Below, in pieces: positions 9,682 through 41,342 of a DNA stretch of 61,148 bases (the first letter of the stretch is position 1; every line of letters begins with the position of its first letter). The stretch is from Alphaproteobacteria bacterium UBA3637. Its GTDB lineage: Bacteria > Pseudomonadota > Alphaproteobacteria > CAAHEQ01 > UBA3637. Both the position numbers and the translations under genes were made by a program. The notes below the pieces were generated by a model that had not been told where the DNA came from, ran no database searches, and saw only the letters and a program-made list of their open reading frames with translations. The DNA lies in contig DFKU01000050.1 of the NCBI GenBank assembly GCA_002373615.1, positions 1-61,148 on the forward strand, given 5' to 3'.

Positions 9682-11243
9682 GTATTTGCCCCTTCTTCTC
9701 GCATTTCTTCAGTAAACAGAGTGGCTTGATTTCGCCCATTTTCTTTCGAATGATACAAGGCAATATCTGCTTCTTTCGTCATTAAAGAAATATCTCCATT
9801 TTGGGTATTGGTGATCCCCAAGCTGATTGTAATGGGAACACGTGTTTGACCCGCCATAATAACAGCTTGTTCCACACTTGAGCGAATGCGTTCCGCCGCT
9901 ATTTTTGCCCCTTGAGCATCCGTATTACTGAGGAAAACAATAAATTCTTCCCCCCCAAAACGCGCAATAATATCCGAATCGCGATGAGTTTTATTCAATA
10001 CATCCGCAACCCGCTTTAAAACTTCATCCCCCATATCGTGCCCAAAAGTATCATTTACGTGTTTAAAATGGTCAATATCCAACATTATCATAGAATAAGG
10101 AATTTTTTGACGGATACAATTGGAAAGGGCCATCTGGCTCATCGCTTCGAACTGACGACGGTTATAAAGTCCGGTCAAGGTATCCGTAGAAGCCTCTTTA
10201 AAAAGCTTTTCTTCTGTTTGTTTTTGCGTAGTAATGTTTTGTAAGTTCATATAAAGAGCCAGCTCACCATCCAACTCTACAACACGCGCGGATAAATCCA
10301 ACCAGAGTATATCCCCTGTTTTAGGTGATTTCATTTTAACTTCAAAATTATCTACGATTTTCTTCTGACGCGCCATTTCAATCAATTCATCCCGTTTTTG
10401 GGGTTCTGTAAAATAATCTTTTAGGCGAAAATTTGAAATCCCATCTTTTTCCACTTTTAAAACAGAACATGCTATTGGATTAATGTAAATAACAGAATCA
10501 TCGAGCAATTTTGACACCAAAATAGGAAAGGGGGCAATATCCCAGAATTGAGTCCGGCGTTGCTTTTCTTTTTCAAGATTTTCTTCAAAATCAAGGCAGG
10601 TCACTTCCATAAACTTGATTTGAGCCATTAAGACTGAAAGGGAAACACCCCCAAATATAAAAATGGGAAACCAACCTGTTCCAGATATAAAATCAAATTC
10701 ACGCGCCAGATAATAAAGCGCCAGAACAAAAAAGGCATCCCCTACCCGGTCAAATAAAGAAGTTTTACCAACACTTTTCAACAAATGGAACGAAAAGCCT
10801 ACAACAACCCAACAAGCTGCCAATGACCAATAAATCAAATTGTATTCAGGAAAATAAATTTTAAATACATGAATAAAAATAACCTGAAGGACAAAAAAAA
10901 GAAAAACACAGGATAAAAGCGCAGACATTCCCAACGCACTGACCAACAAACTGACCCCCAAAAAAGAACACCCCAAACTGACTGTGATTCCTTGAATAAT
11001 TTCATACCCTTTAAATGAAATCAAAAAATTAGGATTTAACACAACCAATGAAGGTAATATAACCATCAAAAGGGTTCCAAAAGCCAAAATATAACAGGCT
11101 GTGGATATTAAATGAAACCGCCTTTTTTGGGTTGATCGAATAAAAAACATCCCAAAACATAAGCCCATAATCAAGTAGCCCAGACTTTCTAAGCCATATT
11201 GATTAAACCCTTGAACAATAATTTCAGACATTTCTTTAAACAT
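9678..11243 (-). CDS. Membrane-bound PAS-GGDEF diguanylate cyclase
   Basis: About 7 N-terminal TM segments, a PAS-like region and a GGDEF domain (DHFKHVNDTFGH...RFGGEEFIV). Confidence 0.85.
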   Translation of the reverse strand: MFKEMSEIIVQGFNQYGLESLGYLIMGLCFGMFFIRSTQKRRFHLISTACYILAFGTLLMVILPSLVVLNPNFLISFKGYEIIQGITVSLGCSFLGVSLLVSALGMSALLSCVFLFFVLQVIFIHVFKIYFPEYNLIYWSLAACWVVVGFSFHLLKSVGKTSLFDRVGDAFFVLALYYLAREFDFISGTGWFPIFIFGGVSLSVLMAQIKFMEVTCLDFEENLEKEKQRRTQFWDIAPFPILVSKLLDDSVIYINPIACSVLKVEKDGISNFRLKDYFTEPQKRDELIEMARQKKIVDNFEVKMKSPKTGDILWLDLSARVVELDGELALYMNLQNITTQKQTEEKLFKEASTDTLTGLYNRRQFEAMSQMALSNCIRQKIPYSMIMLDIDHFKHVNDTFGHDMGDEVLKRVADVLNKTHRDSDIIARFGGEEFIVFLSNTDAQGAKIAAERIRSSVEQAVIMAGQTRVPITISLGITNTQNGDISLMTKEADIALYHSKENGRNQATLFTEEMREEGANT

Positions 11244-38251: not shown

Positions 38252-38500
38252 TTGCAATTCAAATAAAAATAAAATATAATGTCTTCGTTCGGATCGACCG
38301 TCCGAACTGAGGGAGTAGTAGCCCAAAAATATAGGCGAAAGAAGAATATTCTTTTGTTTGGCATTCACTTCTAAAGTGGAAAATTAAAAACTATCTTTAG
38401 GGTGGATGCCTACCGAATAAGGGTATCTGCCTGAATAAGTAGGGCTATTTCCTATGTTTTAGCTACTAACATCCACTCACTTTAACAGGTGAGTTTTTTT
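38252..38500 (+). ncRNA. Promoter plus structured RNA (copy D of the leader family) ending in a strong intrinsic terminator
   Basis: TTGCAA(38252-57)-17 nt-TATAAT(38275-80). Hairpins GTTCGGA/TCCGAAC, GGG..GCCC and AAGAA/TTCTT. GGGTGGATG(38400-08) pairs with CATCCAC(38470-76), enclosing CCTAC-CGAATAA-GG..CC-TGAATAA-GTAGG. Terminator ACTCAC-N8-GTGAGT plus T7 (38475-38500). Confidence 0.55.
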
Positions 38501-38506
38501 GTAATC

Positions 38507-38571
38507 CGTCATTGCGAGGGCTTTAGCCCGTGGCAATCTGATGAGATTGCTTCACTATCGTTCGCAATGAC
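38507..38571. mobile_element. Palindromic MITE-like repeat
   Basis: CGTCATTGCGAGG...GGCAATCTGATGAGATTGC...TTCGCAATGAC. The two halves are inverted repeats around TGATGA. Confidence 0.6.
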
Positions 38572-38586
38572 AAGAAAGGAGTGAAC

Positions 38587-39057
38587 ATGGAAAAAGTATG
38601 TGTATTTTTTGGTCACAGATTGATACCCAATTCCCAAGAAATTGAGCCACAACTAAAACGCGTGGTTCGGGAGTTGATTAAAGATGGCTTTAATACTTTT
38701 TGGTTGGGTGGGTATGGTGATTTTGACCAATTGGCGCAAAAAGTGACATGGGAATTAAAAAAAGAGTTTCCCTATATTCAACGTGTATTGGCTTTGGCGT
38801 ATTTACCCACGAACAAAGAAGACTATCAATTTAAAAGCCTGTATTATGATATGATGTTTTATCCTGAAGGCGTGGAACTGGGCCCCAAAAAATTCGCAAT
38901 TACCAAGCGCAACCGATACATGGTAGAAAATGCAGATGTGGTGGTGGCCTATGTGAACGCTGAAACAGGGGGGGCAGCGTATGCCTTAAAATACGCAAAA
39001 AAGTTAAATAAAAAAGTGATTGAATTAAAGCCCGATGGACCCAGAGAAAGAAATTGA
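38587..39057 (+). CDS. SLOG-fold / DUF1273-like protein
   Basis: VCVFFGHR......WLGGYGDFD...YMVENADVVVAY fits the DUF1273 (YoqJ/SLOG) pattern. RBS AAAGGAG before the ATG at 38587. Confidence 0.55.
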   Translation: MEKVCVFFGHRLIPNSQEIEPQLKRVVRELIKDGFNTFWLGGYGDFDQLAQKVTWELKKEFPYIQRVLALAYLPTNKEDYQFKSLYYDMMFYPEGVELGPKKFAITKRNRYMVENADVVVAYVNAETGGAAYALKYAKKLNKKVIELKPDGPRERN

Positions 39058-39082
39058 CATTTAAGGGGTTTTGTGGTATAAT
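39054..39082 (+). promoter_or_regulatory. Consensus sigma-70 promoter placed for a leaderless U32 peptidase mRNA
   Basis: TTGACA(39054-59)-17 nt-TGG-TATAAT(39077-82). The ATG at 39090 lies only 7 nt after the -10 element. Confidence 0.5.
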
Positions 39083-39089
39083 TTGGGAT

Positions 39090-41342
39090 ATGCAAAAACC
39101 TGAATTATTGGCGCCTGCGGGCGATTTAGAGGCCGGATATGCTGCCCTATATTATGGAGCAGATGCAGTGTATTTAGGCTTAAAAGCCTTTTCGGCACGG
39201 GCCAGCGCCACCAACTTTTCCCCCGAGGAACTGAACGAATTTACCGCCTATGCGCACCATTTAAAGCGTAAAGTGTATGTCACCATCAACACGCTGGTGC
39301 AGGAAAAGGAACTGGCTGATTTATTGGCCACCTTGGATGTGTGTTCTGCGTGTCAGGTGGATGGGATTATTTTACAAGATTTAGGTGTCGCACGGATTAT
39401 CAAAGAAAGCTATCCGGAATTGGCCTTACACGCCAGCACACAAATGGCGGTACATAATAAAGAGGGGGCGTTAGCGTTGCAAAAAGCGGGCTTTTCACGG
39501 GTTGTTTTGGCGCGCGAACTCACTCTATCCGAAATCAAAGAAATTGCCGAAATTCCTGGGTTAGAAACCGAAGCCTTTATTCATGGGGCACTGTGTTATT
39601 GTTATAGCGGATTGTGTTTGTTTTCATCCATGGAACAGGGGCGCAGTGCCAATCGCGGCAAATGTGCGTATCCTTGCAGAGCCCTCTTTAAACGGGGCGA
39701 AAAAGAAGCGCACTTTTTTTCCATGAAAGACATGGCGTTGCAAGAGGAAGTGTTAAAATTGCCCGTCACCTCGCTTAAAATAGAAGGACGCAAGAAAAAA
39801 GCCCTGTATGTGGCGGCAGTCACCGACTATTATCGGCGGATTTTGGATAAGGGGAAAGCCGATCCTAAACGCGCCGAAAATATTCGCCAAATCTTCTCGC
39901 GTCCTTGGACAAAATTCCGCCTGCATGGCAAAAATACCGAGGTGGTGGACAACGATTTTGTGGGGCATCGCGGATTAGAAATCGGAAAAGTGGAAAAGGT
40001 CTATCACAACACTTTAATCTTTACACCCAATCATGCAGTCGCGCGCTTTGATGGGATTCAAATTGATGTGGCAGGTTCCGAAAAACCTTTTGGCTTTTCT
40101 GTGCAGGAAATGCGCGTTAAAAACAAAAATGTGTTTGAGGTAAAGGCCGGCGAAAAAGTGGAAATCAAACTGCCCCCAAAATCCCCCTTTATTGAGGCAG
40201 GACAAGTGGTATATTTGGCCTCCTCCAGCGAGGTCAAGGGAACCTATAAATTCACCACCCCCAAACCCCATGAATATAAAAACAGGATTTCTGTACCGGT
40301 GGAAGTTATTTTGAATGCAAAAGAAATTGTGGCAAAATCAGGGAAAACAGAAGTACGTTTGACGGGTGATTTTAGTCCGGCGCAAAACCCAGAAAAAATG
40401 AATGAGGCCGTAAAAAGCGCATTTCTAAAATTTAAGGATACCGCCTTTTTGCCCAACATTACAATCAAAAATAACCCGCCTGTTTTTGTGCCGATGTCCA
40501 TATTAAACCAGTTGCGGCGTGAGCTTTATGACAAAATTGAAATAACCCCCAAAAAAGGCGTATTGCCAAAAACTGAAACGCGCGCCCTGCCCCCAAAAGC
40601 AAAATGGATTTTAAAAACAGATGATTTAGAAAAAATGAAAGGCGTGGATTTAACGGATTTTTCGGAAATCATTATTGTTTTAACAGAAGATTTGGATTTA
40701 GATAAGCTGGCAAAATTCCCAAAAGAAAAAGTGCGCTTTGCCCTACCCACATGGTGTTTGAATCCTTTTCACATAAAGAAAAAAATAAGGGACGTTTGGG
40801 AAGTGGGCTACACCCGATTTGAAATTGGGAATGTCTGGGGGCTGGAAGCCTTACCAAAAGGCGCCGAAATCACCGCAGATGCCAGCCTTTATATGATGAA
40901 TTCTGAAGCAATAGAGCAGGCCAAAGAATGGGGCTTAAAACGCATTACTTTATCGGTGGAAGATACTTTGGAAAATTTGAAAACTGTGGCAGAAAAATCA
41001 GCTTTGCCCTGTGTGCTGACTGTGTATCAAGATGTGCCCCTTTTCCAGAGTGTGAATTGTTTAACGCGCCATTGTGCCGTGTGTCAGAAGCGGGAATGCC
41101 GTATGCGCCTTACCCGTAACGGACAGATTTATCATGTGTGGACGAAAGATTGTCAAACAACCATTTTTAATGATAAGCCTTTTTATATTGGTAAAGAACG
41201 GGAACAAATGGCGGCAGATTTTTATCGCATAGATTTTGTGAATCGCCCCTACACCCCCGAACAAGTTTCAGAGATTATTCAAAAAGTGCGCTCTGAAGAA
41301 AACATCCCCGGCCTATCAGGAAACTTAAAAAAAGAGATTTAA
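39090..41342 (+). CDS. Peptidase U32 family protein (long form)
   Basis: PELLAPAGDLEAGYAALYYGADAVYLG...HASTQM...EAFIHGALCYCYSGLC...SANRG.C...CR is the U32 signature. It has a long C-terminal extension. Confidence 0.85.
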   Translation: MQKPELLAPAGDLEAGYAALYYGADAVYLGLKAFSARASATNFSPEELNEFTAYAHHLKRKVYVTINTLVQEKELADLLATLDVCSACQVDGIILQDLGVARIIKESYPELALHASTQMAVHNKEGALALQKAGFSRVVLARELTLSEIKEIAEIPGLETEAFIHGALCYCYSGLCLFSSMEQGRSANRGKCAYPCRALFKRGEKEAHFFSMKDMALQEEVLKLPVTSLKIEGRKKKALYVAAVTDYYRRILDKGKADPKRAENIRQIFSRPWTKFRLHGKNTEVVDNDFVGHRGLEIGKVEKVYHNTLIFTPNHAVARFDGIQIDVAGSEKPFGFSVQEMRVKNKNVFEVKAGEKVEIKLPPKSPFIEAGQVVYLASSSEVKGTYKFTTPKPHEYKNRISVPVEVILNAKEIVAKSGKTEVRLTGDFSPAQNPEKMNEAVKSAFLKFKDTAFLPNITIKNNPPVFVPMSILNQLRRELYDKIEITPKKGVLPKTETRALPPKAKWILKTDDLEKMKGVDLTDFSEIIIVLTEDLDLDKLAKFPKEKVRFALPTWCLNPFHIKKKIRDVWEVGYTRFEIGNVWGLEALPKGAEITADASLYMMNSEAIEQAKEWGLKRITLSVEDTLENLKTVAEKSALPCVLTVYQDVPLFQSVNCLTRHCAVCQKRECRMRLTRNGQIYHVWTKDCQTTIFNDKPFYIGKEREQMAADFYRIDFVNRPYTPEQVSEIIQKVRSEENIPGLSGNLKKEI

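Follow-up and report, generated by a model that had tools for sequence, protein, structure and literature searches.

Based on sequence and covariation analysis, leader copy D is, with a probability of about 0.7, the cis-acting 5′ leader of the SLOG gene at 38587-39057, where it would switch transcription between termination and read-through into the gene. The window, meaning the whole stretch of DNA that was analysed (61,148 nt), carries four copies of this leader. The observation made on copy D in the earlier note is real. At this locus a sigma-70 promoter is followed by a structured leader of ~210 nt, a hairpin with U7, a MITE and then the SLOG gene (Table 1). The family to which D belongs is, as far as sequence can tell, an uncatalogued, order-wide, multi-copy set of ~200-nt RNAs. 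The new elements are a conserved leader-SLOG unit, a leader subtype specific to SLOG genes, the apparent derivation of the B-type leaders from that subtype, and a mosaic MITE block. No description of a leader RNA ahead of YpsA or pilin-like genes was found in the literature.

Table 1. Features of the copy D locus, and loci of signal-nucleotide enzymes in the genome
Feature	Position	Strand	Basis or remark
Sigma-70-type promoter, TTGCAA-17-TATAAT	38252-38280	+	Promoter scan, 10/12 matches; hexamers align across 50 copies
Hairpin H1 (GUUCGGAU / GUCCGAAC)	38287-38307	+	Stems at this position vary in sequence among copies
Small hairpin, 7-nt loop	38311-38324	+	86% paired in 25 SLOG-type leaders
Pseudoknot PK1, 5′ strand AAAAAUAUAGG	38325-38335	+	Partner is the P_D loop, 38451-38460
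Variable hairpin H3 (AAAGAAGAAUAUUCUUUU)	38338-38355	+	Folding
Anti-P_A (anti-antiterminator) strand GGCAUUCAC	38360-38368	+	Pairs with GUGGAUGCC at 38402-38410; in the minimum-energy fold of D
Three-way-junction core	38400-38478	+	A1/A3 covariation; covariance model
P_A	38400-38408 / 38470-38478	+	A1, A3
P_B	38409-38413 / 38439-38443	+	Internal loops AAUA / AAUA invariant
P_C, distal hairpin of the P_B arm	38421-38432	+	
P_D	38444-38447 / 38460-38463	+	A1, A3
Intrinsic terminator, hairpin and U7	38475-38500	+	Hairpin 38475-38494; 5′ arm 38475-38478 within the P_A 3′ strand
Palindromic MITE between terminator and RBS	38508-38571	.	64 nt; 10-bp inverted ends GTCATTGCGA / TCGCAATGAC
RBS AAGGAG (38576-38581) and YpsA-family SLOG gene (ATG 38587, 156 aa)	38576-39057	+	PF06908
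GGDEF / GGDEF / RelA-SpoT / DAC loci	window 9726-10193; G000 C75:27028-27471; C17:26295-26630; C66:24046-24393	- (window locus)	

The leader family and its SLOG-linked subtype

Iterated nhmmer searches identified 63 leader copies in the 1.11-Mb genome (85 contigs, 41% G+C; E-values down to 1e-44), and the same number was returned by R1, a covariance model built on the 3′ core of the leader. Every copy comes with -35 and -10 hexamers of its own, a leader of ~190 nt and a terminal hairpin. Within the order, of which the collection contains a single family, R1 matched 74 of 80 genomes (15 of 16 genera), with 1 to more than 47 matches per genome. In 16 genomes that represent other families of the class, the model found nothing. 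High numbers (23-48 matches per genome) were observed in G062, G067 and G072 of g26, in G077 and G095 of g2, in G073 of g27 and in G016 of g1; sister genomes of the leader-rich ones carry 1-10 matches, and copy number has expanded independently in several genera. When the whole window was searched with Rfam at the gathering threshold, a tRNA was the only match and nothing was returned for the leader. At E<=10 the D region gave chance matches to eukaryotic families only, and no T-box was detected in the window or at related loci, even at E<=5-10.

In this genome the genes behind the leader copies are mostly type IV pilin-like (G|RSMVEMLG...), together with ~60-aa lipoproteins and SLOG genes. 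The leaders of other genera stand ahead of genes for lipoproteins, further signal-peptide proteins, a glycosyltransferase and an XRE-like protein. The suggestion that the regulon is wider than the pilin-like genes is therefore strongly supported, by the lipoproteins, the secreted proteins and the glycosyltransferase, and systematically by the SLOG genes described below.

The gene behind copy D had been read as a SLOG-fold gene, and database comparison agreed with this reading. It scores 30.1 bits with the YpsA/SLOG family of Pfam (PF06908), whose cut-off is 27.7, and a profile of 16 relatives matches the structure of Bacillus subtilis YpsA (2NX2) with E=3.7e-4. The NCBIfam model PRK13660 gives it 21 bits against a cut-off of 165, which makes it a divergent member of the YpsA family. 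The ligands of SLOG proteins are presumably nucleotide-derived; in Bacillus, cell division is affected by YpsA (PMC6459960).

Five SLOG paralogs were identified in this genome; a leader lies upstream of four of them, and at the fifth the contig ends within the MITE. A protein search of 61 genomes of the family detected SLOG genes in 28 genomes belonging to 9 genera. An R1 match was located directly upstream, on the coding strand, at 29 of the 30 SLOG loci that were fetched (9 genera), and across genera the distance from the end of the match to the SLOG start codon is roughly 0-30 nt. SLOG-linked leaders have a core subtype of their own, GGGUGGAUGCC (GGGTGGATGCC...CATCCACC), which in its fuller form reads GGGUGGAUGCC...CAUCCACC(C), with GGUGGGUGCC in one clade; they also have a GGCAUC(C/U)AC strand upstream. 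In four other genera all leaders of this subtype precede SLOG genes, and the subtype is absent from all 18 non-SLOG leaders. A B-type derivative, GGGGUGGAUGCUUACC, was found ahead of genes for pilin-like or secreted proteins only in the genus of the window. The shared subtype and the linkage at 29 of 30 loci indicate that the leader-SLOG unit is old and that D is its ordinary, ancestral-type form. On the same comparison of cores, the B-type pilin leaders look derived, as an offshoot of the SLOG-type leader.

The genes for a U32 peptidase and a HAD phosphatase, which follow the SLOG gene in the window, flank none of the 29 other SLOG loci. Since these neighbours are not kept, the conserved unit is the leader plus the SLOG gene, and read-through into 39054-41342 is not conserved. 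A perfect extended -10 promoter (12/12, TTGACA-17-TGnTATAAT) was observed at 39054-39082, within the last codons of the SLOG gene and immediately ahead of the conserved U32 start; the U32 peptidase gene is thus probably transcribed on its own.

Outside the order, a search with the SLOG protein returned only YpsA-like genes of ~40% identity, from metagenome-assembled genomes of gut Clostridia (L070-L078), and the leader was not found at these genes. The genomes come from roe deer, rabbit and human samples, and gene transfer between gut lineages is possible. In the window itself, a LOG-family gene (PF03641; SLOG cluster 4 match) is located at 1585-2172 on the minus strand, 172 nt downstream of the copy-B pilin-like gene and on the same strand as that gene. 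Being single-copy, it is probably linked to copy B by coincidence.

The MITE and a probable recent exchange among SLOG modules

The palindromic MITE that had been noticed downstream of D is confirmed by its 10-bp inverted ends and by further copies, full or partial, at 15 sites elsewhere in the genome. It has terminal inverted repeats, is short, contains no ORF and occurs in dispersed copies. A promoter scan of the element gave no promoter-like site; a weak one is possible. The MITE is common to four close SLOG paralogs, and the short spacing between leader and start codon in other genomes leaves no room for it, so it is a later insertion. SLOG leaders lacking the MITE occur in this genome as well, as at C28:1018-1241. 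A block that includes the terminator, the MITE, the RBS, the first ~45 nt of the gene and a second stretch of ~50 nt is 96-98% identical in four SLOG modules (window 38470-38705; G000 C42:1440-1690; C67:7960-8210; C67:12314-12160), whereas outside the block, in the promoter, the 5′ leader, the core and the remainder of the gene, the same modules are 50-80% identical. This contrast points to a recent exchange of the block, by gene conversion or recent spread. The D locus was also located in ERZ12302819 and ERZ28612943; the two other assemblies with the locus are identical over ~6 kb, so that no population variation could be obtained from them.

Copy D had been described as the closest relative of copy B. 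All four runs named as common to the two are present (GGCATTCAC; GGTGGATGC.TACCGAATA; TCTGCCTGAATA.GTA; CTAACATCCACTCAC), and by BLAST the copies are 77% identical over 110 nt (E=8e-18). Inside the window B is indeed the nearest relative of D; genome-wide it is not, as the leader of a SLOG paralog (C67:7754-8003) is nearer, with 81% identity over 156 nt and 83% across the core.

This likeness to B bears on the proposal that D is the leftover leader of a pilin-like gene that was replaced, or a recent and inert segmental duplicate. D is 74-80% identical to B-type pilin leaders, the MITE intervenes between D and its gene, and the near-identity of the block from terminator to gene start in four paralogs does indicate recent exchange. 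The replacement of a pilin-like gene is nevertheless contradicted by the leader subtype, which in the four other genera examined was seen ahead of SLOG genes alone, and SLOG genes of other genera have the same subtype without a MITE. Nor does D have the features of an inert copy, since all of its helices are intact and its covariance-model score (R1, 92.6 bits) is the best in the genome. We therefore consider an origin of D as a remnant or inert duplicate very improbable.

Structure of the leader and a predicted transcription switch

Pairing was counted for a specified secondary structure in A1, a MAFFT alignment of 50 paralogous cores, and in A3, which aligns 25 SLOG-type leaders of many genera. 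In A1, pairing reaches 97% in P_A (9 bp), where columns 8/94 show six pair types; P_B (6 bp) is 96% paired, with compensatory changes in all six pairs; and P_D (4 bp) is 82% paired. Across genera, in A3, the corresponding values are 99% for P_A, 94% for P_B and 97% for P_D. The observed A1 score was reached by none of 500 shuffles, and slid partners were 34-50% paired; as the paralogous copies are related, the shuffle controls overstate significance, and more weight is carried by the slid-partner controls and by the cross-genus alignment.

Upstream of the junction, the H1 columns are 53% paired in A3, a count weakened by an alignment shift. The loop of the small hairpin is T-loop-like in many copies (GGGUUCAAAUCC) and reads GGGAGUAGUAGCCC in D. 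Pairing of the PK1 strand with the P_D loop, compared over 50 copies, gave a cognate mean of -10.55 kcal/mol against -7.18 kcal/mol for non-cognate pairs, and 48 of the 50 cognates fell in the better half. The proximal half of the pseudoknot (A3 columns 55-58 / 229-232) is 90% paired, and changes on both sides were found in all four pairs. A possible second tertiary pairing, between the H1 loop (38295-38299) and a linker (38334-38338) immediately 3′ of the pseudoknot strand, was spotted by eye; it reads UGCCC / GGGCA in SLOG-type leaders, UGUCC / GGACA in B-type leaders and C67a, and GGCGU / GCGCC in C-type leaders. An automated comparison of this pairing gave -2.96 kcal/mol for cognate and -2.49 kcal/mol for non-cognate combinations.

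The anti-P_A strand lies 3-30 nt upstream of P_A throughout the family and complements the 5′ strands of both P_A and P_B. In D it is one of the runs that had been flagged as common to D and B, and its hairpin is lengthened by 38369-38399. Over 50 copies the cognate pairing averaged -14.23 kcal/mol against -11.00 kcal/mol for non-cognate pairs, with 46 of 50 in the top half. In the 25 SLOG-type leaders the helix is 93% paired, as compared with 35-46% when the strand is slid; the variation there consists of wobble changes, with no double compensatory changes.

The terminator of D (ACTCACTT-TAAC-AGGTGAGT) has 8 pairs, including one G-U and three G-C, and is followed by T7. It had been called the strongest of the copies. 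This holds for its U-run, which is the longest (tied with one other copy), but not for its hairpin, which at -8.3 kcal/mol ranks 21st of 50; it is the most canonical terminator of the four copies in the window, not the most stable. The terminator hairpin is 91% paired in A1, with four compensatory pairs, and 83% paired in A3. Columns 93-96 of A1 are common to the outer pairs of P_A and the 5′ arm of the terminator (3-4 nt shared). Column 94 has a partner in column 8 in 100% of copies and one in column 117 in 80%, and columns 93-96 pair within the terminator in 80-98%. Since P_A and the terminator share these columns and both covary, both are under selection, and they cannot fully coexist.

The features of an attenuation leader are thus found together: a terminator between promoter and ORF, a conserved helix that overlaps it, and a conserved anti-antiterminator. 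The mechanism best supported by these alignments would be a three-state attenuator, made up of an anti-antiterminator, an antiterminator (junction plus pseudoknot) and a terminator. Transcription of D would begin near 38287, at the leader's own promoter, and the nascent RNA would take one of two folds. In the OFF state, GGCAUUCAC would pair with the P_A 5′ strand and the start of P_B; CAUCCACUC would thereby be freed to form the full terminator hairpin (38475-38494), which with U7 would yield a terminated RNA of ~210 nt. In the ON state, the P_A/P_B/P_D three-way junction would form and be locked by the pseudoknot between the P_D loop and 38325-38335; P_A would remove 3-4 nt from the terminator stem, and polymerase would continue through the MITE into the SLOG gene. 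In this scheme the leader would act on transcription, the junction would be the ON state, and an effector (a small molecule, a protein or an RNA) would stabilise the junction.

Folding energies were calculated for both states of D. At the energy minimum D adopts the OFF state, with the anti-P_A helix and the full terminator (-77.2 kcal/mol; z = -6.2 against shuffles). With P_A forced, the ON state has -58.4 kcal/mol; with both pseudoknot strands left free it has -52.4 kcal/mol, to which the pseudoknot duplex adds -8.6 kcal/mol, for a sum of about -61 kcal/mol. In the energy model OFF is thus favoured by ~16-19 kcal/mol, which suggests that termination is probably the default and that the ON state would need an effector, tertiary contacts or kinetic folding. 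Several other genera have a poor U-tract after the hairpin, so termination may not be the sole read-out of the family.

If termination is the default, a discrete RNA of ~210 nt is likely to be made, and such an RNA could have a second role. The earlier note had named a stand-alone sRNA of ~210 nt, acting in trans, as one explanation of D. In a fuller form of this reading, D would resemble c4 or sRNA-Xcc1, ending at its terminator and acting on other transcripts, with the SLOG gene being incidental. D does have its own promoter and the canonical terminator described above, and some cores of the family resemble the free-standing sRNA-Xcc1, at 23-35 bits. The Xcc1 model, however, gives no score to D itself, and several properties tie the leader to its gene and to itself: the leader-SLOG arrangement is kept at 29 of 30 loci in 9 genera at a short, fixed distance; the terminator shares nucleotides with a covarying alternative helix; and each variable loop pairs with the 5′ leader of its own copy. 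Copy-specific complementarity to downstream regions was not found. A side role in trans is possible, but as the main function of D we regard it as unlikely, and a cis-acting switch ahead of the SLOG gene is preferred. Among the explanations offered in the earlier note, the extension of the regulon is strongly supported, the replacement of a pilin-like gene is contradicted, and the stand-alone trans-acting RNA is not supported.

The identity of the factor that would select between the folds allows for another reading, in which the leader is a protein-binding platform or a processing signal (for example for RNase P) and not a small-molecule riboswitch. The regulon consists mainly of envelope and surface proteins and corresponds to no single metabolic pathway; typical docking modules are present in the form of the invariant AAUA / AAUA internal loop and the T-loop-like hairpin; and c4 precursors are substrates of RNase P. 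The SLOG protein is excluded as the obligatory trans-acting factor, since leaders exist in genomes with no detected SLOG gene (G024, 99% complete, with 3 leaders; G016, with 39). This reading appears rather doubtful to us, and the attenuator outlined above, controlling the SLOG gene in cis, remains the preferred one.

Despite its small size (1.1 Mb), the genome retains two GGDEF proteins, a RelA/SpoT homologue and a DAC-type c-di-AMP cyclase (Table 1). With enzymes for c-di-GMP, c-di-AMP and (p)ppGpp all present, none of the three is favoured or excluded as the effector. A wider reading is possible, and we put it forward tentatively: the leader may represent a new class of effector-sensing RNA switch, built on the c4/Xcc1 junction fold, in which a trans antisense RNA has been turned into a cis antiterminator. 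It would then control up to about 60 transcription units, mostly for surface proteins, in genome-reduced bacteria, with the YpsA-type SLOG gene as the one near-universal cytoplasmic target, under a leader subtype of its own. Such a target hints that the RNA senses a nucleotide-derived signal which SLOG proteins handle, or that these proteins tune what it senses. With 63 copies in a 1.1-Mb genome and an order-wide distribution, few known cis-regulatory RNA regulons would be as dense. Covariation backs the fold unusually well, both alternative states included, and the tight link between one leader subtype and one gene family of YpsA type would provide a defined anchor for ligand testing.

Comparison with known systems

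The 64-nt insert behind D resembles Rickettsia palindromic elements and MITEs in its 10-bp inverted ends, internal hairpins and dispersed copies. It differs in its location, in the 5′ UTR between terminator and RBS, where it is a passenger and not a part of the switch.

The c-di-GMP riboswitches (GEMM-I/II) are multi-copy regulators of genes for pilins and surface proteins, and the leader is like them in having many copies per genome ahead of genes for pilin-like and secreted proteins. Unlike them, it has another architecture and no match to GEMM, and nothing ties the GGDEF proteins of the genome to it. With the S-box/SAM-I riboswitch and the T-box the leader has in common three mutually exclusive conserved helices, an intrinsic terminator before the ORF and a complex conserved fold that could potentially bind an effector. 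In contrast to these systems, the complex fold of the leader is the antiterminator, which would make it an ON switch. Its genes are those of surface and SLOG proteins and not of one metabolic pathway, and it has no Rfam riboswitch or T-box match.

The motifs c4 and c4-a1b1 have been listed as phage-associated (PMC2864571). The leader is comparable to the C4 antisense RNA of phages P1 and P7 (RF01695) by analogy only, in that a loop of the core pairs with upstream sequence of its own transcript, as in a1/b1. Membership in C4 was considered and is not supported, as the model gave no matches at E<=1 in the whole genome. For a target of the a2/b2 kind, at the RBS of the downstream gene, the P_D region was compared with the downstream 100 nt and gave no signal; cognate pairs gave -6.94 kcal/mol and non-cognate pairs -6.68 kcal/mol, and the ranks were evenly spread.

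The closest structural parallel to the core is sRNA-Xcc1 (RF02221), an 88-nt RNA of Xanthomonas campestris that has been seen on a Northern blot (PMC2996969). Its model gave six matches in the genome, all below threshold (23-35 bits; cut-off 53) and all exactly on leader cores. In two relatives the match (30-31 bits) extends over model positions 1-87, with the three helices and the AAUA loops aligned. For D itself the model gave no match at E<=10, and the gathering score of 53 is reached by no copy. The leader core is like sRNA-Xcc1 in its three-way junction closed by a 9-bp G-rich helix (GGnnGGnnG), its second helix with AAUA...GAAUAA internal loops, its third hairpin and its U-rich joiner. 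It differs from sRNA-Xcc1 in being part of a ~200-nt leader that has a 5′ domain, a pseudoknot, an anti-P_A strand and an overlapping terminator and precedes an ORF, in reaching 63 copies per genome and in not lying in integron cassettes. The location of the core inside a ~210-nt leader before an ORF argues against a free-standing transcript of ~88 nt. Taken together, these likenesses support a distant fold relationship between the leader and sRNA-Xcc1, short of membership in the Rfam family, and the leader family offers the sRNA-Xcc1 fold a context in which its function can be tested.
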